Shown: positions 275 through 52,094, counted from the stretch's first letter. The stretch is 64,000 bases of DNA from Candidatus Delongbacteria bacterium (GCA_016937995.1 JAFGVM010000016.1:18570-82569), one strand, 5' to 3'. Notes: generated by a model not told the origin, from the sequence alone. A program made the numbers and translations.

Positions 275-2728
275 ATGCGTTCCACAGTGAAAATAAATAT
301 GAAAAAACACTTAAACATATTACTCCTCCTTATCTTAACAGCGAACATCTTCGCTGAAGACAATATCATCTTAAAAGTTTTCAAACTGCCAGACCCAAAG
401 AGTAATGAAGCTTTTAACAGAGCTGATATGGCAGTTATCGAAGCATTCAAGCAGAAATATCCTGAGATTGAACTCAGATCATACTCAGGTATCGAACTTG
501 AGAATATGGAACTCGATGCAGGTCCATTAATGGCAATTGCAGGTGGTGTATCCCCTGACATTATTTATGTAAATTTCAGACAATCAGCTACATATATCGA
601 AAATGATTTCCTTTATCCACTGGATGAGTTCATAGAAAACATTTCAGAGGAAGAATTGAACGGCAGGATAGCAAAACCTGTCTGGCCAGTAGTAAAGAGG
701 AAGAAAACAGGTGACAAAGATAAGCATGTCTGGTGCATGCCTTATGAAACTCTTGTCCGTGTAATGCTTTACAGGAAAGATCTTTTCTATAAAGTAGGCC
801 TTGACCCTGAACAGCCTCCTAAAGACTGGAACGAACTGCTTCAGTATTCCAAGAGAATGACGATCCCTGAAGAAGGTACTTACGGACTATATTTAGCTTC
901 AGGACCTCAGGCTGCTTACGACTGGATTACTTATCTCTGGAGTGCAGGAGGAGATGCCGTAGTTCAGGATCCTGATACAGATGAATGGTATGCTTCATTC
1001 AATGGCCGTCCTGCTATTGATGCGATGAAATTCTACCTTGAACTTATTACTACGAAGTGGAAAGACAGTGAGGGTAACCATCAGCAGGGATTTGTAATAA
1101 GAGAAGGTAACTGGGGAAATCTCAGGGATGATGGCAAGCTCGGTATCCTGATGGGATATATGGATGACAAAAGGCTCGGTGGTGAACTTGACCCTAATCT
1201 CTGGGGAATTGCTCCTCCACCAAAGGGTCCAACCGGTCTTAGAGGTTCAGAGATCAACTGTAGAATGATGGGAATTTTCTCTGGTGCAGGAATTTCCAAC
1301 AATGGCGGTCTCGGTGATAGAGATCCTGAAAAAGTCAGGGATGCAGCATGGAAATATATCCGTTTCTACGACAGTGATGAAGCGAGAAAGATCAGACTTG
1401 AAGTCATGATCAACGCAGGATACGGTAGAATGCAGAATCCTCTTTATCTGAGAAAATATGGCTATGAAGAATATTTAAAATATACTCCACCTGACTGGCT
1501 TGCAACATTTGAAGAAGCTATTGAAAACGGTAAACCTGAACCATACGGAAAAAATTGTCAGAAGATATATGAGTTCATGACCTACCCGATCGAAAAATGT
1601 ATTTCACTGGAAGAGAAAGGTCAGCTTGGAGATACAGTCGAAGAAAAGGAGAAGAATATTTCTCAGATATTCGATGCTGCTGTTGAAAGAACTAATCAGA
1701 AAATGATAGGAAGGATCACTCCTGATGAAAGAAATTTCAGGAACAGAGTTGCAGTTTTCGTAGCAATATTCATTTTCATATTCTTTTCTATTGTTCTCTA
1801 TAGGGTCTGGAAAATATTTACACCTGATATGATAATTAAGACCCGTAAAAAGAATAATAAGATCATTTTCATTGCAACTTTATTACTTCTTCCGGCTCTG
1901 GGATCAATAATTCTATGGAAATACGTACCTATGATCATGGGTACTTTTATTGCATTTCAGAATTATAGCATAGTTGGAAATTCTGAGTGGGTCGGTCTTG
2001 CTAACTTTGCAGATGTTCTCTTTGATCCTGTCTGGTGGTCAGCTCTTGGAAAAACATTTTACTACATGTTCTTATCTCTTGTCTTAGGGTTTGTTCCACC
2101 GATATTCCTCGCTATCTTCCTACAGGAAGTCTCTCACGGAAAAATGTTCTATAGGATAATTTATTATATGCCTGCAGTGATCAGCGGAGTTATCGTTATC
2201 TATCTCTGGAAACTTCTATATGATCCTTCTGATGCCGGTGGATTGAATCAGATACTGCTTTCACTGGGGTTTGAAAAAAGCAGATGGCTGAAAGAGGAAT
2301 CTCTTGCAATGATATTAACCATTCTTCCTTCTATCTGGGCCGGATTAGGACCGGGTTCTCTACTATATCTTGCTGCACTGAAAGGAATCCCCGATGATGT
2401 CTATGAAGCTGCTGATATTGACGGAGCTGGTTTCTTTCATAAACTCAGACATATAGTTTATCCTGCTCTTAAGTCATTGATACTGATCCAATTCATAGCT
2501 GCTTTCATTGCTGCGACACAGCAAAGTGAATTCATCCTCGTAATGACTTTCGGTGGACCGAATGAGGCAACGAAAGTTGCAGATCTGCTGATATTCGAAA
2601 AAGCTTATTTATACTTAAACTTTGGAATAGCAACAACAATGGCCTGGATGCTGGGATTACTGTTAATGTTCGTAACAGTGTTCCAGATAAGGAAACTATC
2701 AAACATGGAGTTCAAAGCGAACAGGTAG
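275..2728 (+). CDS. Fused extracellular solute-binding protein (family 1) and MalF/UgpA-like ABC permease
   Basis: 817-aa ORF. N-terminal signal peptide, then about 480 aa SBP-like domain. C-terminal about 330 aa has multiple TM helices and the EAA loop EAADIDGAGFFHKLRHIVYPAL. Confidence 0.8.
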   Translation: MRSTVKINMKKHLNILLLLILTANIFAEDNIILKVFKLPDPKSNEAFNRADMAVIEAFKQKYPEIELRSYSGIELENMELDAGPLMAIAGGVSPDIIYVNFRQSATYIENDFLYPLDEFIENISEEELNGRIAKPVWPVVKRKKTGDKDKHVWCMPYETLVRVMLYRKDLFYKVGLDPEQPPKDWNELLQYSKRMTIPEEGTYGLYLASGPQAAYDWITYLWSAGGDAVVQDPDTDEWYASFNGRPAIDAMKFYLELITTKWKDSEGNHQQGFVIREGNWGNLRDDGKLGILMGYMDDKRLGGELDPNLWGIAPPPKGPTGLRGSEINCRMMGIFSGAGISNNGGLGDRDPEKVRDAAWKYIRFYDSDEARKIRLEVMINAGYGRMQNPLYLRKYGYEEYLKYTPPDWLATFEEAIENGKPEPYGKNCQKIYEFMTYPIEKCISLEEKGQLGDTVEEKEKNISQIFDAAVERTNQKMIGRITPDERNFRNRVAVFVAIFIFIFFSIVLYRVWKIFTPDMIIKTRKKNNKIIFIATLLLLPALGSIILWKYVPMIMGTFIAFQNYSIVGNSEWVGLANFADVLFDPVWWSALGKTFYYMFLSLVLGFVPPIFLAIFLQEVSHGKMFYRIIYYMPAVISGVIVIYLWKLLYDPSDAGGLNQILLSLGFEKSRWLKEESLAMILTILPSIWAGLGPGSLLYLAALKGIPDDVYEAADIDGAGFFHKLRHIVYPALKSLILIQFIAAFIAATQQSEFILVMTFGGPNEATKVADLLIFEKAYLYLNFGIATTMAWMLGLLLMFVTVFQIRKLSNMEFKANR

Positions 2729-2742
2729 ACGTGTTAAATTAT

Positions 2743-2820
2743 GTCATTGCGAGGAAGGAACTGACGAAGCAATCTAAAAAAAGTGAGATTACCACAGCTT
2801 TTTCAAAGCTTCGTAATGAC
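2743..2820. repeat. GTCATTGCGAGG-family palindromic repeats upstream of the GIY-YIG gene
   Basis: GTCATTGCGAGGAAGG at 2743 and inverted GTCATTACGAAGC at 2806-2818. The same family recurs at 3134, 3206-3219, 3234-3270 and 11117. Confidence 0.6.
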
Positions 2821-2861
2821 AAGGTGTAAAAATGGAATAAAAAGTATTCAGTATATACATT

Positions 2862-3125
2862 ATGACGAACCAAAAGAATAAAACCTTATATACTGGTGTA
2901 ACAAGTGATTTAAAGAAAAGAATTTATGAACATAAAAATAAAATTCACAACAACAGTTTCACTGCGAAATACAACATAAATAAACTGGTTTATTACGAAA
3001 CAACTAACGATCCCACTTCAGCGATAACGAGGGAGAAACAAATAAAAGCTGGTAATAGACAAAAGAAATTAGATTTAATCAACGAATTTAATCCAGAATG
3101 GAAAGATTTATATGAGGATATCTAA
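2862..3125 (+). CDS. GIY-YIG nuclease superfamily small protein (UPF0213/YhbQ-like)
   Basis: 87 aa with LYTGVTSDLKKRIYEHK matching the GIY-YIG core. It is inserted between two permease genes. Confidence 0.75.
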   Translation: MTNQKNKTLYTGVTSDLKKRIYEHKNKIHNNSFTAKYNINKLVYYETTNDPTSAITREKQIKAGNRQKKLDLINEFNPEWKDLYEDI

Positions 3126-3133
3126 AATAATCT

Positions 3134-3270
3134 GTCATTGCGATGAATGAAATGAAGAAGAAATCTAGATTAGGAAATTAGAAATTAGGTTGCCACACAC
3201 CAATGGTGTTCGCAATGACTCAATAAAAAGAAGATTGCCACGGATTTTTGAAAAAAATCCTCGCAATGAC
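3134..3270. repeat. Cluster of GTCATTGCGA-type repeats downstream of the GIY-YIG gene
   Basis: GTCATTGCGATG at 3134. Inverted copies appear at 3206-3219 and 3234-3270. GATTGCCACGGATTTTTGAAAAAAATCCTCGCAATGAC is the reverse-complement homolog of the 11117-11151 element. Confidence 0.6.
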
Positions 3271-3287
3271 AAATAACGGAAAAACAA

Positions 3288-5573
3288 ATGCCAATTATAG
3301 GAAAAGTAGGTAACCGATCGTTCAAGGTTAAATTCCTGAACACCAGTATTCATACGATACTGCTCATCGGTAGTATCACTATGATATACCCTTTCCTTAT
3401 TATGCTATCCGCATCTTTTAAAAGTAACGTAGATTCAAAATATTTCGATATAATCCCGAAGTATTTCCATGACGATCAGATGCTTTATAAAAAGTACACT
3501 GAATCCCGTTTCAATGAAGAAGTACTCCAGTTTACAGCTCAATATAAGAACAAATATTTTTCATTCGATTATTTGCAGTTCCCTGAAAATGAGAATTCTA
3601 CACTAAACAATGACTGGAAAGAATTCCTAAAAGAGAACGAGCAGAATTATGATGAATTTGACTATGCGATCTCAGAACAGTTCTCAAGAGGGGTTTATAC
3701 CCGAAATGAACGTGCTTTCAGGGATAAAATGACAGATGAATTTGATGGTGATCTTGAAAAATTCAATACAAGATATGGAATTTCATCACCAACCTGGGAA
3801 GATGTCAGAGAAGAATCTAAAGATATCCTTTCAAGAAAATTTACCTCTGAGAAAGTCGGCATGATGGTAGCCTATGATAAATTCAGAACTGAACTTGAAG
3901 ATTGGCATAAGATATATCTTTCATTGGACGGACATTTTATAAGCAATGAACTTATTCCTGCGTATAGGAACAAACTTGATCTGCTGAATAAAGAACTTGG
4001 AACAGATTATACTTCCTGGGATAATATCGTACTTTCAAAGACTTTGCCTGATGGTAAGCTGAAAGATCACTGGATACATTATGTTAAGAAAAATCTGAAT
4101 GTTCACCATATCCTTTTAGACAGTCTCGGTCTTGAGAACTACAGAAGTTACCTTAAAGAAAAGTATGTCACTGTGAAAATGCTTAACGATACCTGGCAAA
4201 CAGATTTTTCTACTTACGATGAGATTTCTGCTGAGAATGCATACACACATGGATCTTCCCTGCTGGATTATATTTTCTTCATAGAAAACCAGGCTCAACC
4301 TGAGAATCTAAAGATCTCAAGTATTGAATTTGATTTCAGAGATTGGTTACAGAATAAGTACCCGGATATTTCCAATGTAAATACAAAATATTCAAATGGA
4401 TTTAAAGCATTCTCTGAAATAAAACTAAGTTCTGTTTATCCTGAAAGTAACTTGATGCTTCAGAATGACTGGAATTTATTCATCCGAAGTATTGATGATC
4501 TATCATCTCTGGAACTTTCAATGTCATGTCAGTATGAATACCTTGAATTTCTGAAGATAAAATTCCATAGAGCTGGAAAGTTAGACCTGCAGCAACTGAA
4601 TAATTCTCTCGGTACGAACTACGATAAAGAGATAAATATTTATCCTGCAAAGAAACTTCCTGCAAATGAAAAACAGGCTAAATACTGGAATGAATTCGTA
4701 AGAAACTATGTAAATCCGAAATTTATTACGGTCACTAAAGATCTAAACTCAAGCTGGCAGAAATATCTCACTGAAAAACATGGTGACATTGAGACTCTGA
4801 ATGAAACTTACAACTTGAAATTCAAAAACTTTGAAAACATCAGCATAGACTTTCAATACCTTGACTATCATATCTTCAAAGAGCATAAGAGTGACATCTT
4901 CTGGGAATTTGTAAAACGGAACTATGTGATGATCATTGATGCGATGCTTTTTAACGGTCGGGCGATAGTAAATACCCTCATCTATTGTCTTCTTGCAATT
5001 CTGACTGCTGTTATCGTAAATCCACTTGCAGCGTATGCTATGAGCCGTTTTAAACTGAAAGCAAATTATAAGATAATACTTGTTCTAATGCTTACAATGG
5101 CATTTCCTCCAATGGTAATGGGAATACCAAATTTCCTTATCCTGAAGAATATGAGTTTGCTCAACACTTTCTGGGCACTTATTCTACCCGGAGCAGCTGA
5201 TGGATATTTTATATTCCTGCTGAAAGGATTTTTCGATTCTCTTCCGAAAGAGCTTTTCGAGTCTGCTACCGTTGACGGTGCCGGAGAAGTCAAGATCTTC
5301 ACAAAGATAGCAATGTCCCTTTCAAAGCCTATCATGGCTGTTATTGCACTTGGAGCTTTCAATGCAGCTTACAGGAATTTTATGTTCGCATTCATTGTCT
5401 GTCAGGATCAGAGCATGTGGACTATGATGGTGCATATTTATCAGATAACTCAGAGAAGTTCATCAGGCGTAGGTTATGCTGCACTTGTTATAGCTGCAAT
5501 ACCAACATTTGCAGTATTTATCTTCTTCCAGAATATTATAATTAAAGGAATTGTTGTTCCAACGGAAAAATAA
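3288..5573 (+). CDS. MalG-like ABC permease with roughly 500-aa extracytoplasmic insertion after TM1
   Basis: 761 aa. TM1 near residues 20-40, a long soluble region, then C-terminal TM bundle with EAA loop ESATVDGAGEVKIFTKIAMSLSKP. Confidence 0.75.
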   Translation: MPIIGKVGNRSFKVKFLNTSIHTILLIGSITMIYPFLIMLSASFKSNVDSKYFDIIPKYFHDDQMLYKKYTESRFNEEVLQFTAQYKNKYFSFDYLQFPENENSTLNNDWKEFLKENEQNYDEFDYAISEQFSRGVYTRNERAFRDKMTDEFDGDLEKFNTRYGISSPTWEDVREESKDILSRKFTSEKVGMMVAYDKFRTELEDWHKIYLSLDGHFISNELIPAYRNKLDLLNKELGTDYTSWDNIVLSKTLPDGKLKDHWIHYVKKNLNVHHILLDSLGLENYRSYLKEKYVTVKMLNDTWQTDFSTYDEISAENAYTHGSSLLDYIFFIENQAQPENLKISSIEFDFRDWLQNKYPDISNVNTKYSNGFKAFSEIKLSSVYPESNLMLQNDWNLFIRSIDDLSSLELSMSCQYEYLEFLKIKFHRAGKLDLQQLNNSLGTNYDKEINIYPAKKLPANEKQAKYWNEFVRNYVNPKFITVTKDLNSSWQKYLTEKHGDIETLNETYNLKFKNFENISIDFQYLDYHIFKEHKSDIFWEFVKRNYVMIIDAMLFNGRAIVNTLIYCLLAILTAVIVNPLAAYAMSRFKLKANYKIILVLMLTMAFPPMVMGIPNFLILKNMSLLNTFWALILPGAADGYFIFLLKGFFDSLPKELFESATVDGAGEVKIFTKIAMSLSKPIMAVIALGAFNAAYRNFMFAFIVCQDQSMWTMMVHIYQITQRSSSGVGYAALVIAAIPTFAVFIFFQNIIIKGIVVPTEK

Positions 5574-5802
5574 ATTTTCATTACTCCCAATTTTTCGGAT
5601 TATCAATTATATATTGCCTGATATTGTTCAATTCTTTTTCGGTACGAATTACCCTTTCAAAATAATTACGTTGCCTTATTGTGATTTTGTTTTGTTGATT
5701 ATTTGTGTTTTTAACCCAATTCGCATTACCTCTCAATTCTAATTTCTAACTTCTAATTTAACAAAACAAAAGGTCAAATAATGAACCTTTGATGGAAATA
5801 CC

Positions 5803-5859
5803 TAATTTTTCTAAAAATTTTCTTAGGCAATCACTTTATTCATTATTAAATTAATTATC
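5803..5859 (+). promoter_or_regulatory. Conserved 57-bp upstream element, copy 1 (promoter/5-prime UTR of FISUMP lipoprotein gene)
   Basis: TAATTTTTCTAAAAATTTTCTTAGGCAATCACTTTATTCATTATTAAATTAATTATC is about 92 % identical to 6764-6820, at a similar distance from the start codon. Confidence 0.55.
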
Positions 5860-5897: not shown

Positions 5898-6665
5898 ATG
5901 AACATCAGTTTAAAAACTGCAATAAGATCAATTGTGTCTCTATTGATTTTTTCGGTAGCTTCAACTTTGTTTTCTCAGGAAATTCTAACGATCAAGAAGA
6001 AAGATAATACTACCCTTAATATCCCTACTTCGGATATTGTCAGCCTCACTTTTTCCGGGTCTAAACAGATCATAGACGATAATTCCATAGTGGATGTAGA
6101 TGGAAATGTATATAATACCGTTAAGATCGGGATGCAGACATGGACCGGAAGGAATCTTGAGACAACAAAATTCAAGAACGGGGATCCGATCCCGATAGCT
6201 GGTTCCGAGGCTGAATGGGCAAATGCTGCGAAAACAGGAAAACCTGCCTGGTGCTATTATTTGGATGATTCTGAGAACGGTATTAAATACGGAAAATTAT
6301 ACAATTGGTATGCTGTGAATGATAAACGAGGATTAGCTCCTGAAGGATGGAGAGTTTCTTCAGCAAGTGACTGGGATGAAATAAAAAAGTTTTTGAAAAA
6401 TATTCCAGGTGCTAAATTAAAAGAGAAAGGCAATGCGAATTGGGTTAAAAACACAAATAATGTTACAAACGAAACTGGTTTTACCGCTCTTCCCGGTGGT
6501 GTAAGAACAGATAATGGTAAATTTAGCGGCTTAGGATCAGTTGGAGTGTGGTGGACTTCTGATATTATAGGTCTGCGTATTGCAATATGGGATTATAATT
6601 CGTCAGTTCAACAAATGAAACAGAACAAAGGTTACGGATATTCTGTAAGATTAGTTAAAGAATAA
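5898..6665 (+). CDS. FISUMP (Fibrobacter succinogenes major paralogous domain, TIGR02145-like) lipoprotein
   Basis: Signal peptide present. Motifs GKLYNWYAVND and GFTALPGG. It is a paralog of 11290..12030. Confidence 0.75.
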   Translation: MNISLKTAIRSIVSLLIFSVASTLFSQEILTIKKKDNTTLNIPTSDIVSLTFSGSKQIIDDNSIVDVDGNVYNTVKIGMQTWTGRNLETTKFKNGDPIPIAGSEAEWANAAKTGKPAWCYYLDDSENGIKYGKLYNWYAVNDKRGLAPEGWRVSSASDWDEIKKFLKNIPGAKLKEKGNANWVKNTNNVTNETGFTALPGGVRTDNGKFSGLGSVGVWWTSDIIGLRIAIWDYNSSVQQMKQNKGYGYSVRLVKE

Positions 6666-6763: not shown

Positions 6764-6820
6764 TAATTTTTCTAAAAATTTTCTTAGGTAATCCCTATAT
6801 TCATCATTAAATTAATTATC
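6764..6820 (+). promoter_or_regulatory. Conserved 57-bp upstream element, copy 2 (upstream of fba)
   Basis: Near-identical to 5803-5859. Followed by an AT-rich stretch and an AAGGAGA ribosome-binding site. Confidence 0.55.
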
Positions 6821-11077: not shown

Positions 11078-11116
11078 ATATGTCACACTGAGCGGAGTCG
11101 AAGTGCGACTTTCAAA

Positions 11117-11151
11117 GTCATTGCGAGGATTTAATTAAATCCGTGGCAATC
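11117..11151 (+). repeat. GTCATTGCGAGGATTT-AATTAA-ATCCGTGGCAATC palindromic element
   Basis: Homolog of the 3234-3270 element in inverted orientation. Confidence 0.6.
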
Positions 11152-11165
11152 TTGTTTTTAAAAGA

Positions 11166-11188
11166 GGGGACGATAAGAAATCGTCCCC
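11166..11188. terminator. Hairpin GGGGACGATAAGAAATCGTCCCC (REP-like)
   Basis: 8-bp perfect stem. The same stem with a different loop occurs at 16960-16982. Confidence 0.55.
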
Positions 11189-11199
11189 TACAGTTTATT

Positions 11200-11251
11200 C
11201 CGGATGAACACATAGGTTCATCCCTACTTGGATATTGGATATTCCGTGTTG
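11200..11251. repeat. About 52-bp intergenic repeat, copy 1 (contains GATGAAC..GTTCATC hairpin)
   Basis: About 80 % identical to 20748-20800. Confidence 0.55.
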
Positions 11252-11289
11252 TGCCTGTTCCGATTTATCGGAAGATATTCATTTATTAA

Positions 11290-19508: not shown

Positions 19509-19611
19509 CTTGTTCGGTATACCGATGCTACTACTACACCTGGATTCCTCCCGATTTATCGGGAAGAATGACGGATTATAAAGGGAACGGTTTGAAACCC
19601 TCCCCTACGTA

Positions 19612-20625
19612 TTATTGGTAATACTCTTTAAAAGCTTCGATTACTTTCTCAATATCATCTTCCGTTATATCTAAATGTGTAACCAAGCGAATACTTCCAT
19701 ATCCACCAATGAGAATACCTTTTTCCTTCATGAAATTTTGCAGTTCGATAAATTCATTCTCATCAACATCAACGAACATCATATTAGTCTGAACTTCTGA
19801 GATCTTACTTTGTAACTCAGGGATATTATTCAATCCATCAGAGAGGATCTTTGCATTTTCATGATCTATTGCTAATCTCTGAACATTATTTTGAAGTGCA
19901 TAGATCCCCGCTTCTGCAAGAAGACCTGCCTGCCTCATACCTCCACCAAGCATTTTTCTCCATCTACGGGCTTTTTGAATAAGTTCTTTTGAACCACACA
20001 GCAGTGAACCTACCGGTGCTCCAAGACCCTTTGAAAGACAGATGGATATCGAATCAAAATATTTTGTAATTTCTTTAATATCAACATTTAACTTTACTGC
20101 AGCATTAAATACTCTAGCTCCGTCAAGATGAAGTTTTAGGTTATATTTATCGACCAACTCTCTGGATGCTTTAAAGTATTCTAAAGGTAGAACTTTACCA
20201 TTATTAGTATTCTCAAGGCAGAATAATTTAGACTTAGCAAAGTGATAATCATCGGGTTTGATCTTATCTTCTGCTTTTTTCAGATCAATAGTACCATCTT
20301 CTTCAAATTCGATCGGTTGAGGTACAATAGAACCCAGAACAGCAGCTCCACCACCTTCATGGATATAAGTATGAGCTCCCTGCCCGACAATATACTCTTC
20401 TCCCCTTTCACAGTGAGATAACAAAGCCATCAGGTTAGTCTGAGTTCCACTTGGTGCAAAGATAGCATTCTCTGTTACAAGCATTTCTGCTGCAAGTTTT
20501 TCTAATTTATTTACAGTTGGATCCTCACCATAAACATCATCCCCGACTTCCGCTTCGAACATTACTTTTTTCATCTCTAAGGATGGTTTTGTAACTGTAT
20601 CACTTCTAAGATCTATTATTTTCAT
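19612..20625 (-). CDS. ltaE: Low-specificity L-threonine aldolase
   Basis: 337 aa PLP-dependent beta-eliminating lyase family. N-terminus MKIIDLRSDTVTKPS. Confidence 0.8.
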   Translation of the reverse strand: MKIIDLRSDTVTKPSLEMKKVMFEAEVGDDVYGEDPTVNKLEKLAAEMLVTENAIFAPSGTQTNLMALLSHCERGEEYIVGQGAHTYIHEGGGAAVLGSIVPQPIEFEEDGTIDLKKAEDKIKPDDYHFAKSKLFCLENTNNGKVLPLEYFKASRELVDKYNLKLHLDGARVFNAAVKLNVDIKEITKYFDSISICLSKGLGAPVGSLLCGSKELIQKARRWRKMLGGGMRQAGLLAEAGIYALQNNVQRLAIDHENAKILSDGLNNIPELQSKISEVQTNMMFVDVDENEFIELQNFMKEKGILIGGYGSIRLVTHLDITEDDIEKVIEAFKEYYQ

Positions 20626-20747
20626 ATAAACTTCCTTTTTATGTGTTCAATATGTTGAACCTTTATGTCTTTGTCATCCTCGGACTTGATCCGGGGATCC
20701 ATTTGTAATCAGAGACGCCCTGTAGGTCGTCTTTACGGAAATCCATT

Positions 20748-20800
20748 CCAGATGAACGTATGGGTTCATCCTTACTTCATCATTGGATTTTCCGTGTTGG
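20748..20800. repeat. About 52-bp intergenic repeat, copy 2
   Basis: About 80 % identical to 11200-11251. It is preceded by a degenerate CTGTAGGTCGTC REP fragment at 20720. Confidence 0.55.
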
Positions 20801-45203: not shown

Positions 45204-46958
45204 TTATTGTGAATTGGATATCACTCTAAATTCGATCCTTCTATTTTTTGCTCTTCCTTCTTTACTTTTGTTTGAAGCGACCGGTATTTCTTCTCCAAAA
45301 CCTACTGCTTTGATCTGAGAACTGGAAATGTTCAGTTCTGTTATTAGATAATTGTATACCGATTCAGCTCTTTTTTGAGAAAGGTTCAAGTTATATGCGG
45401 CACTTCCCTGACTGTCAGTATGACCTTCTATTTGAATTACGATATTAGGATTGTCTATGAATATCCGTTTTACTTTGTTCAAAGTAGGGAAAGAATTTGT
45501 AGTAAGTTCAGCTTTACCTGTTTTGAAGTAAATATTATCCAGAACAATTCTCTCATCTTTCTTTAGAATTATCGCATCAGGACATCCATCATCATCTTCA
45601 AATCCATTTAATGTTTCTGCCATGTTCGGACACTTGTCCAAAGTATCTTTTATACCGTCTTGATCATTATCAAATTCTGGACATCCATCCTGATCTTCGA
45701 AACCGTCAAGATCTTCAGGTTCGTTTGGACACTTATCAGTTGCATCAGGAATTCCATCATCGTCATTATCCAACTCTGGGCATCCATCAAGGTCCTCATA
45801 ACCATCCATATCTTCAGGTTCGTTTGGACATTTATCATCCACATCCTTAATACCGTCTTTATCATTATCATCCTCTGGACATCCATCTTCATCCTCATAA
45901 CCGTCTAAATCTTCAGCTATATTTGGACATTTATCTGCCAGATCTTTAACACCGTCTTTATCATTATCATCCTCTGGACATCCATCTTTATCTTCAAATC
46001 CATCAAAATCTTCTGGATCCTTAGGACACTTATCCAGCTTATCAATTATTCCATCCTTATCCGCATCCAATGATACAACAAGTCTGGTCATTGAAAATCC
46101 TACGAAGGCCTGCCATTTTGGAGATTCCTCGTTTAGTCCCCCGTAGCCACCGTATGTTAAATAGTAGTATTCTCCAAAATTATGACGCAAACCACCTCCG
46201 AGCCTTTGCGGGAAGATATTCCGGTGAGTTAAATTCAGTTCATATTCTGCATCATATTCCATGAACAGCTTTGTGTTCTTTGATGTTCTTGCATCAAAAC
46301 CGGCACCTAATGTAAATATATCAGGCAACTCGGTAGAATATCTTAGTACGTAGCCTGTGTTAAGCATAAAATTAAATTTGTCGTTTCCAATGGATGTGAG
46401 TAGTTTTGCCCCTCCACTGATCTTGTTATTATACAGAAGTTCATCACTGAAATTTCTATGATCATAATAGTAATTGCCGTTATTTTGGTAATCAGAAAAA
46501 TCAGGATCAAGTTCATCGTATACAGGGAATGTTATGAAAAAATAAGATCCAAAATTGACTAAGCCTTTGTTTTTAAAAGAGTATTTAAATCCAAGTTCAG
46601 TGTTGTTAATATCTGATAAAGAAACTTTCGAACTGTCTGGAATCTGCCTTTTATCGTATGCAAAAGATATCTTTGCATTTAAATCTATTCTTTCAGTCAA
46701 TCCGTAAGAGACGCTAAAATGAGTAGTTGATTGAAAATAATCTGACAAAGATATGGATTCAACAATATTATCTGATATAGTTGAACTGGCACCTAAAACA
46801 GAATTCAGACTTAATGACAAGAAACCATAACCATTTGTTGATGCATCAAGAAGTTTTATATAGCCTTTTTGACCATTGATCGAAACTTTTGAGAAAGAAA
46901 GCGCTGAGATCAATAGTAGTAGGATTATGGTCATTCTTTTTGCCTTATATATTTTCAT
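45204..46958 (-). CDS. OmpA-family outer-membrane protein with five thrombospondin type-3 repeats
   Basis: N-terminal barrel. DKDG(V/I)KDxxDKCPN repeated five times. C-terminal OmpA domain (GHTDSQGSAAYNLNLSQKRAESV). Confidence 0.85.
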   Translation of the reverse strand: MKIYKAKRMTIILLLLISALSFSKVSINGQKGYIKLLDASTNGYGFLSLSLNSVLGASSTISDNIVESISLSDYFQSTTHFSVSYGLTERIDLNAKISFAYDKRQIPDSSKVSLSDINNTELGFKYSFKNKGLVNFGSYFFITFPVYDELDPDFSDYQNNGNYYYDHRNFSDELLYNNKISGGAKLLTSIGNDKFNFMLNTGYVLRYSTELPDIFTLGAGFDARTSKNTKLFMEYDAEYELNLTHRNIFPQRLGGGLRHNFGEYYYLTYGGYGGLNEESPKWQAFVGFSMTRLVVSLDADKDGIIDKLDKCPKDPEDFDGFEDKDGCPEDDNDKDGVKDLADKCPNIAEDLDGYEDEDGCPEDDNDKDGIKDVDDKCPNEPEDMDGYEDLDGCPELDNDDDGIPDATDKCPNEPEDLDGFEDQDGCPEFDNDQDGIKDTLDKCPNMAETLNGFEDDDGCPDAIILKKDERIVLDNIYFKTGKAELTTNSFPTLNKVKRIFIDNPNIVIQIEGHTDSQGSAAYNLNLSQKRAESVYNYLITELNISSSQIKAVGFGEEIPVASNKSKEGRAKNRRIEFRVISNSQ

Positions 46959-51405: not shown

Positions 51406-51480
51406 TCGGGGCGAGAAGATTCGAACTTCCGACCCCCTGCTCCCAAGGCAGGTGCGCTAACCGGACTGCGCTACGCCCCG
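51406..51480 (-). tRNA. tRNA-Pro (anticodon TGG), CCA not encoded
   Basis: The reverse complement folds as CGGGGCG acceptor stem, D-arm GCGCAGTCCGGTTAGCGC, anticodon stem-loop CCTGC-CTTGGGA-GCAGG, and T-arm GGTTCGAATCT. Confidence 0.85.
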
Positions 51481-51527: not shown

Positions 51528-52094
51528 TTATTTATCTTTTTTTTCAATTTCTTCCGTAATCTCAGGTTTTTCTTCTTTAGGCTCTTCTGATTCTTCAACC
51601 ACAGCTTCTTCAACCACAGCTTCTTCAACCACAGCCTCTTCAACCACAGCCTCTTCAACCACAGCCTCTTCAACTTTAGGTTTATCAGCCTTTACTTTTT
51701 CGGTTTTAGCTTTTTTAGGTTTGATTTCAGTTTCGTTATCAAATTCTACAAGTTGAATAACCGCAACTTCGGCAGCATCACCTTTTCTTGTCCCAAGTTT
51801 TAAAACCCTAGTATATCCTCCATTTCTTTCCTTGTAATTTGGAGCGATATCATTAAAAAGCTTGTAAACTACTTCTTTATGCCTAAGAAATTTTAATGCT
51901 TGCCTTAAAGAATTCAAATCACCCTTTTTTCCGAGAGTTATCATTTTTTCAGCATATTTTCTTAATTCTTTAGCTTTTGGCAAAGTAGTTTTTATCTGCT
52001 TATGTTCATATAATTGTGCAGACATATTCGCAAACATAGCTTTTCTATGACTTGCTGTTTTATTCAGTTTTCTGCCTTTAACATTGTGACGCAT
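51528..52094 (-). CDS. rplQ: 50S ribosomal protein L17 with roughly 70-aa repetitive acidic C-terminal extension
   Basis: N-terminus [24 protein letters not shown]. Tail contains (EEAVV)x5. Confidence 0.9.
51592..51674. repeat. 15-bp tandem repeat (about 5.5 copies, CTTCAACCACAGCYT) inside rplQ encoding EEAVV repeats
   Basis: Direct tandem copies readable in sequence. The third position varies between T and C. Confidence 0.85.

Follow-up and report, generated by a model that had tools for sequence, protein, structure and literature searches.

The closest described relative of the locus analysed here is the Ssn/SRM system of Neisseria meningitidis, whose nuclease SsnA (NMV_0044) is a 94-residue, single-domain GIY-YIG protein placed by CDD in cd10448 (GIY-YIG_unchar_3) (Chenal et al. 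2025, Nat Commun, PMC11893778). SsnA binds the NTS repeat CGTCATTCCCGCGMAVGCGGGAATCYRG only as single-stranded DNA (ssDNA) and only on that strand, cutting it a few nucleotides upstream; it neither binds nor cuts double-stranded DNA (dsDNA) and does not bind RNA (PMC11893778). The three nucleotides 5′ of the palindrome control cleavage and the C just 3′ of it controls binding, while the substitutions Y6A, Y17A and E64A abolish cutting with binding retained (PMC11893778). "Ssn-related motifs" (SRM) were found near 71% of homologues and on both sides of 42%, the Ssn enzymes of four species cut their own repeats, and SRM classes with differing specificities were reported (PMC11893778). The same authors liken Ssn/SRM to insertion sequences, to IS200/IS605 and to REP/RAYT, with no mobility demonstrated; the role shown experimentally in Neisseria is the control of transformation by SsnA/NTS (PMC11893778). 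Here we analyse a 64,000-nucleotide stretch from Candidatus Delongbacteria bacterium (GCA_016937995.1 JAFGVM010000016.1:18570-82569; hereafter the window), in which a small GIY-YIG gene and several hairpin repeats stand between two ABC permease genes of a sugar transporter. On the strength of sequence comparison, we give a probability of roughly 0.85 to the reading that this insert is an SRM-ssn-SRM cassette of the Ssn family, consisting of cognate hairpins together with a site-specific ssDNA nuclease.

The open reading frame (ORF) at 2862-3125(+) encodes 87 residues, of which 1-69 match the Pfam GIY-YIG profile PF01541 (E 4.1e-12), and Pfam finds no other domain in this single-domain protein. 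We compared it with the SsnA orthologue of N. gonorrhoeae in place of the N. meningitidis sequence. The two are 50.5% identical in a tblastn search of a 7.3-Gb database (PLSDB; E 2e-21) and 51% identical in a pairwise alignment (93 bits, E 1e-31); the published work counts as Ssn homologues those with tblastn E < 1e-10 against N. meningitidis SsnA (PMC11893778). E. coli YhbQ (b3155), in contrast, reaches only 27% identity and 37 bits. The gonococcal locus (L142, NZ_CP119142.1 1881116-1882585) has canonical NTS repeats, CGTCATTCCCGC..GCGGGAATC, on its flanks and a 94-codon frame that reproduces the Y6/Y17/E64 numbering of PMC11893778. PLSDB lists 2.17-Mb N. gonorrhoeae chromosomes as plasmids, and the 94-codon frame opens with ATT, not with a standard start; a mechanical ORF list gives a 71-residue ORF from TTG only. 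For the window protein, no NCBIfam family scored above its cut-off, and phmmer against PDB sequences returned no match at E up to 1.

The window gene is flanked on its 5′ side (A1 and A2) and on its 3′ side (B1, B2 and C) by hairpins framed by GTC and C. The 12-mer GTCATTGCGAGG, allowing two mismatches or fewer, occurs nine times in the window against 2.3 expected, a count reached in 0 of 100 shuffles. Five of its matches lie within 2743-3270, on the plus strand at 2743 and 3134 and on the minus strand at 2809-2820, 3208-3219 and 3259-3270, with a sixth at 11117. Repeat finding and folding reveal a unit of 32-38 nt, GTC-ATTGC-GA..[variable hairpin]..YGNR-GCAAT-C, of which this 12-mer is just the 5′ end. 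Six such units were recorded in both orientations, namely the five of the insert, among which A1/A2 and B1/B2 form convergent doublets, and a solo copy at 11117-11151, the only one of this class outside the cassette in 64 kb. The preliminary description of this locus was therefore right to count at least five copies in both orientations, although the unit proves longer than the 12-mer and folds as a two-tier hairpin rather than a plain palindrome. Its proposal that the element at 3234-3270 is the reverse complement of the copy at 11117-11151 also holds, the match extending over 47 nt (3224-3270 against 11117-11160) at 87%. In A2 the basal stem reads ATTAC/GTAAT, and pairing has been preserved by a change on both sides. 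The units keep the GTC, the palindrome opening with ATT and closing with AAT, and the following C. Of these, the GTC and the C correspond to the positions that control cleavage and binding, respectively, in SsnA (PMC11893778).

A further GTCATTGCGAGG-like match at 2536-2547 was rejected as a coding coincidence inside the permease gene, where it encodes ILVMTF, the codons of which are found in 30 of 58 insert-free orthologues. A general regular expression for GTC-stem5...stem5'-C hairpins proved too noisy on this AT-rich window (13 matches against 10.9 expected), and was applied only when restricted to GTCAT and to gene flanks. Literature searches with the repeat string itself gave unrelated primer matches only.

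Located within a polycistronic transcript and folding well, the units might instead act in RNA, as transcript stabilisers, processing sites or terminators of the operon, with the link to a GIY-YIG gene incidental; REP elements elsewhere are described as 3′-untranslated-region regulators. We consider this highly unlikely. The units stand in both orientations, so that the mRNA strand would present the folded GTC/C frame for just a part of them, SsnA does not bind RNA, and the conserved unpaired GTC and C fit recognition by a protein. A promoter and terminator scan of 2400-3600 was uninformative and no terminator-like T-tract is present in 2700-3300. No Rfam family matches the units: at gathering thresholds only tRNA was matched in the whole window, and at E up to 10 a chance RybB match alone was obtained on 2650-3350. 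Moreover, the minimal form of the unit, described below, carries GCGAAGC, which is a stable DNA mini-hairpin.

The association of gene and hairpin assumed for an SRM-ssn-SRM cassette extends across many phyla. A scan of one genome per species yielded 265 places encoding a relative, the best 80 of which make up the set of homologue loci counted here. These are 55-69% identical to the window protein, with the exception of one close relative at 92% (L001), and their hosts include Helicobacter, Legionella, Alphaproteobacteria, Bacteroidota, Patescibacteria, Treponema, Fibrobacter, Elusimicrobia, Dehalococcoidia, Clostridia and others; Spirochaetota, Fibrobacterota and Pseudomonadota are among the phyla spanned. 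The exact 10-mer GTCATTGCGA adjoins the gene in about 50 of the 80 loci, usually on the plus strand 60-110 nt upstream and on the minus strand about 40 nt downstream. A class-neutral unit was defined as GTC, a stem of at least 5 nt opening with AT, its complement within 95 nt, and then C. Such a hairpin lies within 250 nt of the gene in 72/80 loci, and half of the loci (40/80) have a plus unit upstream together with a minus unit downstream. Its density is 5.65/kb near the gene, compared with 0.28/kb elsewhere in the loci and 0.08/kb in shuffled loci. Phage records gave distant matches alone (37-39%, Rhizobium phages), with no evidence of phage carriage.

Near the gene the ATTGC stem class dominates with 132 units, followed by ATTCC (29), ATTCT (21) and rarer others. 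Across 134 distinct ATTGC units the GTC and C framing is invariant, GA always follows the 5′ stem and YGNR precedes GCAAT. The middle segment, of about 6-66 nt, shows no sequence conservation, but its folding is better than that of shuffled versions (median z -1.8, with 49% below -2). Unit length ranges from 24 to 85 nt, the shortest being GTCATTGCGA-GCGAAGC-GAAGCAATC. Canonical NTS-type units flank homologues that are themselves 55-62% identical to the window protein (L021, L022, L053, L067, L068 and L073), and SRM units also occur solo and in gene-less arrays. Long SRM arrays stand beside ssn in L037, L038, L046, L050 and L068, with a spacing of about 100-120 nt (24 nt in L050); the units are nearly identical within an array and resemble BIME-like clusters.

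The cassette, about 540 bp long (the preliminary description had put the insert at 560 bp and had rightly placed a GIY-YIG ORF and repeats of both orientations in it), is an addition to the operon as judged from orthologous junctions. When metagenome contigs were scanned with the 199 C-terminal residues of the upstream gene product, 60 loci were obtained. Both permease genes could be placed in 56 of them, and in no case does a GIY-YIG gene or an ATTGC core separate the two. These insert-free junctions are mostly a 4-nt gene overlap or a spacing of 13-21 nt. In the closest insert-free relatives (L081 and L134, permease 89-90% identical) the genes are separated by 19-20 nt reading TAA-AGGAAACGGAAACTATTAA-ATG, without SRM-like sequence, and the right flank of the window, AATAACGGAAAAACAA-ATG, is still similar to this junction. 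On the left, the stop codon of the upstream gene is followed by 14 nt and then by TGTCATTGCGAGG at 2742, which places the edge of the cassette within 2729-2742 and no finer. The only carriers of the insert are the window, an identical Logan contig and one close Candidatus Delongbacteria metagenome-assembled genome (MAG; L001, JAQIDB01), whose permease is 96% identical and whose insert occupies the same site. The insert is thus lineage-specific and parts a formerly coupled permease pair.

This comparison of orthologous operons had been suggested in the preliminary description, which offered two alternatives, a selfish cassette inside an operon or a repeat-associated nuclease analogous to REP/RAYT pairs. 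Both are essentially right and describe the same thing, the pair belonging to the Ssn/SRM system (PMC11893778). That this system was already published, and that the gene has an early nonsense codon, had escaped the description. The contrary outcome considered there, a universally conserved UPF0213 orthologue, is not what was found. A housekeeping nuclease of the UPF0213/YhbQ type, resident in the operon beside chance repeats, would account for a GIY-YIG protein of about 100 residues with a weak similarity to YhbQ; this identity was rejected, and its probability is negligible, given that the gene is absent from every orthologous operon, that the protein is far closer to SsnA than to YhbQ and that the repeats are far above chance in number. 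Literature searches on COG2827/UPF0213/YhbQ, and on GIY-YIG proteins with transposons or MITEs, found nothing useful.

A presence/absence polymorphism at a precise junction would also be expected of a free-standing homing endonuclease that cuts dsDNA empty sites and is copied by double-strand-break repair, the repeats each being one half of the site it recognises. Among homing endonucleases GIY-YIG is a classic fold, and NCBIfam records a weak group I intron endonuclease match (E 5e-5; 23 bits against a cut-off of 56). This explanation is nevertheless very improbable, since the window protein is a bare nuclease domain of about 95 residues without a DNA-binding domain, and characterised members of its family neither bind nor cut dsDNA. 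The repeats, for their part, are complete hairpin units that also occur alone and in arrays without the gene, rather than split halves of a site, and the insert-free junctions of L081 and L134 have nothing resembling them.

Other small inserts occupy the same permease junction elsewhere. L083, L085 and L086 (about 3598-4071) contain a 23S_rRNA_IVP four-helix-bundle gene (PF05635, E 3.5e-28) flanked by the inverted repeats AAATTGTAAAT/ATTTACAATTT, L104 (1397-2863) a YhcG/DUF1016 PDDEXK nuclease gene and L084 (2118-2645) a lipoprotein-like ORF. Small wandering cassettes seem to have a hot spot at this junction.

The 87-residue ORF, taken as the gene in the preliminary description, does encode the GIY-YIG domain but is not the full gene. 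Its Pfam match starts at profile position 7, which made a clipped N-terminus suspect. Upstream of ATG 2862 the frame reads ATG(2832) GAA TAA(2838) AAA GTA TTC AGT ATA TAC ATT, and the Shine-Dalgarno-like AAGGTG at 2821-2826 serves ATG 2832. Homologues are 83-100 residues long and the ancestral frame of the window gene has 97 codons. When the reconstructed product is aligned with 79 homologues, which start M-x3-5-[VI]-Y-I-[ILM]-T-N, its M-E-stop-K-V-F-S-I-Y-I-M-T-N fits every column, and the start is placed at ATG 2832 on this basis. Counterparts of SsnA Y6, Y17 and E64 all align, in the codon at 2856-2858, in TLYTG and in TREKQ, respectively. The TAA at 2838-2840 falls between the start codon and the first catalytic Tyr, so that the 87-residue ORF begins past the first tyrosine of the GIY motif while retaining the other conserved positions. 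The same TAA is present in the identical contig (L141), an independent Logan assembly of run SRR13394436. In the related MAG, a 153-bp deletion takes the rest of A1, all of A2 and about the first 18 ssn codons, although this may be an assembly error. No second ssn gene is present in the 64-kb window. For annotation, the 87-residue ORF should be regarded as a truncated reading of an interrupted gene, and short spurious ORFs arising from SRM repeats should not count as genes.

Over the 71 codons common to the window ssn and its L001 counterpart, the ratio of nonsynonymous to synonymous substitution rates (dN/dS) is 0.065 (dS 0.63), compared with 0.018 and 0.058 for the flanking permease segments. 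This value implies that, since the lineages diverged, ssn has mostly been under purifying selection, and hence that both lesions are recent and independent. Such constraint would equally be expected of a domesticated host function, in which the nuclease restricts incoming SRM-bearing ssDNA or shapes recombination and is not selfish, as would the finding that orthologous pairs from other lineages have retained the cassette at a shared site and the role of SsnA in controlling transformation in Neisseria. We regard this alternative as unlikely, though not far-fetched. The gene is interrupted in the window and 5′-deleted in L001, the cassette is missing from all 56 orthologous operons, a single same-class SRM stands outside it in 64 kb as against hundreds per genome where a host role has been proposed, and the patchy distribution over phyla at 55-69% identity fits horizontal spread.

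The features of the locus are collected in Table 1.

Table 1. Coordinates of the cassette, its parts and its neighbours, counted from the first nucleotide of the window.
Feature	Position	Strand	Basis and remarks
Whole cassette (SRM doublet, ssn, SRM doublet, further SRM)	2729..3271	+	19-20 nt at this place in the insert-free orthologues L081 and L134, a 4-nt overlap in most others
SRM unit A1, GTCATTGCGAGG...GACGAAGCAATC	2743-2774	+	Basal stem ATTGC/GCAAT intact, no distal stem; DNA fold weak, z -0.05
SRM unit A2, GTCATTACGAAG-[hairpin]-GTGGTAATC	2787-2820	-	Two-tier DNA hairpin, -5.3 kcal/mol, z -2.7
Shine-Dalgarno-like AAGGTG 2821-2826, ancestral ATG 2832-2834, GAA, in-frame TAA 2838-2840	2821..2840	+	Sequence reading; homologue alignment; same TAA in L141
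ssn gene (Ssn family, GIY-YIG), with its ancestral frame of 97 codons interrupted at codon 3	2832..3125	+	Pfam PF01541; identity to SsnA orthologue; dN/dS 0.065 versus L001
SRM unit B1, decayed (3′ arm GAAATC, basal stem lost)	3134-3165	+	86% identity with A1 across 35 nt; fold not specific, z -0.9
SRM unit B2, decayed in part (GCAACC as 3′ arm, basal stem of 4 bp, distal hairpin still present)	3188-3219	-	DNA fold -5.8 kcal/mol, z -1.5
SRM unit C, intact, GTCATTGCGAGG-ATTTTTTTCAAAAATC-CGTGGCAATC	3233-3270	-	DNA fold -8.5 kcal/mol, z -3.7, 0/200 shuffles as good
Solo SRM, ATTGC class, intact, in convergent intergenic gap	11117-11151	+	Two-tier DNA hairpin, z -3.4
Upstream operon gene, solute-binding protein and ABC permease fusion (context, outside insert)	275..2728	+	Pfam SBP_bac_1 E 3.6e-20, BPD_transp_1; orthologues in 58 metagenome loci
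Downstream operon gene, ABC permease (context)	3288..5573	+	Pfam BPD_transp_1 E 9.6e-10

By homology with the enzymes characterised from Neisseria and Wolbachia, the window protein in its intact form would be specific for ssDNA in both binding and cleavage. It would bind its cognate hairpin only when single-stranded, on the strand reading GTC-ATTGC...GCAAT-C, and would then cut the bound strand a few nucleotides 5′ of GTC. The repeats around the gene are the putative cognate sites, built of a fixed 5-bp basal stem (ATTGC/GCAAT), a fixed unpaired 5′ GTC, a 3′ C, a conserved GA / YGNR internal loop and a distal stem free in both sequence and length. Cuts are predicted on the top strand just to the left of 2743, 3134 and 11117, and on the bottom strand just to the right of 2820, 3219 and 3270. 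Since A1 is the leftmost and C the rightmost unit, the outermost nicks are predicted just beyond the two cassette ends, a geometry like that of an insertion sequence. The history that best suits these observations would have the cassette entering the junction of two formerly coupled permease genes in a common ancestor with JAQIDB01, remaining under purifying selection for most of the time since entry, and being freshly disabled by the codon-3 nonsense mutation in the window and by the 5′ deletion in its relative. The enzyme of the window is probably inactive at present, although a product re-initiated at 2862 might bind without cutting, as the Y6A mutant of SsnA does. Because enzymes of this fold hydrolyse DNA and cannot join strands, spread probably needs host repair or recombination, and could proceed through recombination between SRM copies or through capture of cleaved ssDNA during replication or transformation.

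Several observations weigh against the reading of the insert as an SRM-ssn-SRM cassette, or against its mobility. The published SRM string, HGTCWYN(0-2)YYVSBRHN(0-5)WNVSBRGN(0-2)RNCYNB, matches no ATTGC-class unit, its YY positions reading TG and the distal stem being longer than N(0-5), and any match to it is found in just 9/80 loci; cognate recognition in the window therefore rests on analogy. The string is a search device and not a definition of the family. Half of the window units (3/6) are degenerate, and the gene as it stands is probably non-functional, since the 87-residue ORF is without the Y6 counterpart and Y6A abolishes SsnA cleavage. No target-site duplication was seen at the window locus, and the homology of paralogous cassettes (the trio L036/L040/L052) ends raggedly, with no sharp common end, which together argue against clean cut-and-paste transposition. 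The orthologous pairs L005/L028, L030/L039, L042/L057 and L064/L066 all retain the cassette at the same site, which indicates, for loci that were chosen for having the gene, that movement is not frequent.

The evidence on movement is accordingly mixed. In its favour are the filled and empty alleles of the permease junction, the paralogues within one MAG, which have just the cassette of about 450-550 nt in common, and cassettes that are 82-90% identical in DNA between different taxa with unrelated flanks; against it stand the missing target duplication and the ragged ends. At one of the paired loci, L064, from a Dehalococcoidales MAG, a rubrerythrin-like gene precedes the ssn cassette, which is bracketed by an imperfect direct repeat of about 38 nt of the 3′ end of that gene (TGCGGGGCGCC.GC.A.GGCGTTTAAGAA...GGAGTAG, at about 2840-2890 and 3310-3360). 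In the related L066 the cassette occupies the same position and the duplicate is missing.

The window contains further repeats, some of them akin to SRM. The convergent intergenic gap 11078-11289 contains, directly 5′ of the solo SRM, another palindromic repeat, GTCACACTGAGCGGAGTCGAAGTGCGAC (11083-11110), which has the inner motif GAGCG...CGAAG in common with the SRM units and ends in GAC, not ATC. Two hairpins, CGTCATTCTTCCCGATAAATCGGGAGGAATCCAG at 19540-19573 (-) and TGTCATCCTCGGACTTGATCCGGGGATCCAT at 20672-20702 (+), match the published SRM string (two against 0.065 expected). They form perfect DNA folds with stem classes unlike those of the ATTGC units, and flank a threonine-aldolase-like gene (Beta_elim_lyase, 19612-20625, -) with their GTC ends toward it; no cognate ssn for them is present in the window. 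A 55-nt direct repeat, 82% identical between 11197-11251 and 20745-20799, stands in each copy just 3′ of an SRM hairpin and suggests a larger composite intergenic repeat that begins with an SRM.

Elsewhere, a 57-nt direct repeat (93%; 5803-5859 and 6764-6820) lies either side of the ORF at 5898-6665, an internal part of which (peptide GNANWVKNTNN) recurs just upstream as a 48-nt inverted copy (5698-5745 and 6414-6461); these are probably the remnant of a duplicated gene fragment. Two arrays complete the list, a coding-like 99-nt tandem array of 4.6 copies at 45580-46036 (74-76% matches) and, near the tRNA gene 51406-51480 (-), a 15-nt array in which TCTTCAACCACAGCC is repeated 5.5 times (51592-51674, 98% matches).

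The Ssn family, described in 2025, has been promoted as a toolbox of site-specific ssDNA cutters, each with its own hairpin. To this the locus adds a nuclease-hairpin pair from an uncultured phylum, with a two-tier hairpin of 24-85 nt that the published string does not match. The ATTGC class is dominant among the 80 closest homologues yet unmatched, which implies that a census with the published string undercounts the family. Since the family itself is already known, the advance is a modest one, and consists of a stem class that looks undescribed, an insertion polymorphism that is clean, and a gene only freshly disrupted. Comparison of filled and empty alleles bears on the question of mobile element or domesticated gene. 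A broader interpretation is offered tentatively, as one that may well prove wrong: SRM-ssn-SRM cassettes could be mobile elements of a new mechanistic type, with a hydrolytic GIY-YIG ssDNA nuclease as the counterpart of the HUH transposases of IS200/IS605 and REP/RAYT, the ATTGC class, attC-like in its fixed base and free distal stem, could form a separate and very widespread specificity group missed by current SRM searches, and the locus would be a dated insertion into a translationally coupled operon junction that collects other single-gene cassettes in other lineages.

The window system can finally be set beside those it resembles. UPF0213/YhbQ proteins are likewise stand-alone GIY-YIG proteins of about 100 residues, but they are distant in sequence and, as far as examined, not repeat-associated, and the window gene is not conserved in orthologous operons. 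The GIY-YIG homing endonucleases (I-TevI, I-BmoI and the T4 Seg proteins) have the same domain and are also selfish-looking, sporadic and inserted between conserved genes. They differ in having a C-terminal DNA-binding domain and in cutting dsDNA at a long asymmetric site, whereas the window protein consists of the domain alone and cleavage by its relatives is limited to ssDNA, beside a hairpin.

Integron attC sites, in turn, have a similar anatomy, with a paired base and unpaired bases that are conserved, a middle part whose sequence and length are free, and reading as a folded single strand, on one strand only. They are recombined by the tyrosine recombinase IntI and bound gene cassettes; the present data give no indication of site-specific recombination at SRM units, whose likeness to attC is a resemblance in anatomy alone.

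REP/REPIN elements with RAYT (TnpA-REP, an HUH Y1 transposase) and IS200/IS605 are closer in organisation, having a small nuclease gene between inverted copies of its own hairpin. Also in common are convergent repeat doublets, as in REPINs, recognition (in the window a predicted one) of a folded single strand with conserved unpaired flanks, and copies dispersed between genes. The enzymes, however, are unrelated in fold and chemistry, as GIY-YIG nucleases hydrolyse DNA without a covalent 5′-phosphotyrosine intermediate and cannot themselves rejoin strands. The likeness thus lies in the layout of gene and repeats, and mobility of SRM is at most a candidate property.

It is the Ssn/SRM system of SsnA that the window matches most fully. 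It differs in the stem, where ATTGC/GCAAT is followed by an internal loop and by a distal stem whose length is free, compared with an 8-bp ATTCCCGC stem and 4-nt loop in the NTS of SsnA, and in the setting, a cassette inside an operon of Candidatus Delongbacteria with its gene interrupted at codon 3. Common to both are a single-domain GIY-YIG protein of about 95 residues, hairpins of the form GTC-[AT...stem]...[stem'...AT]-C on both sides of its gene, solo and array copies, and a distribution over many phyla.

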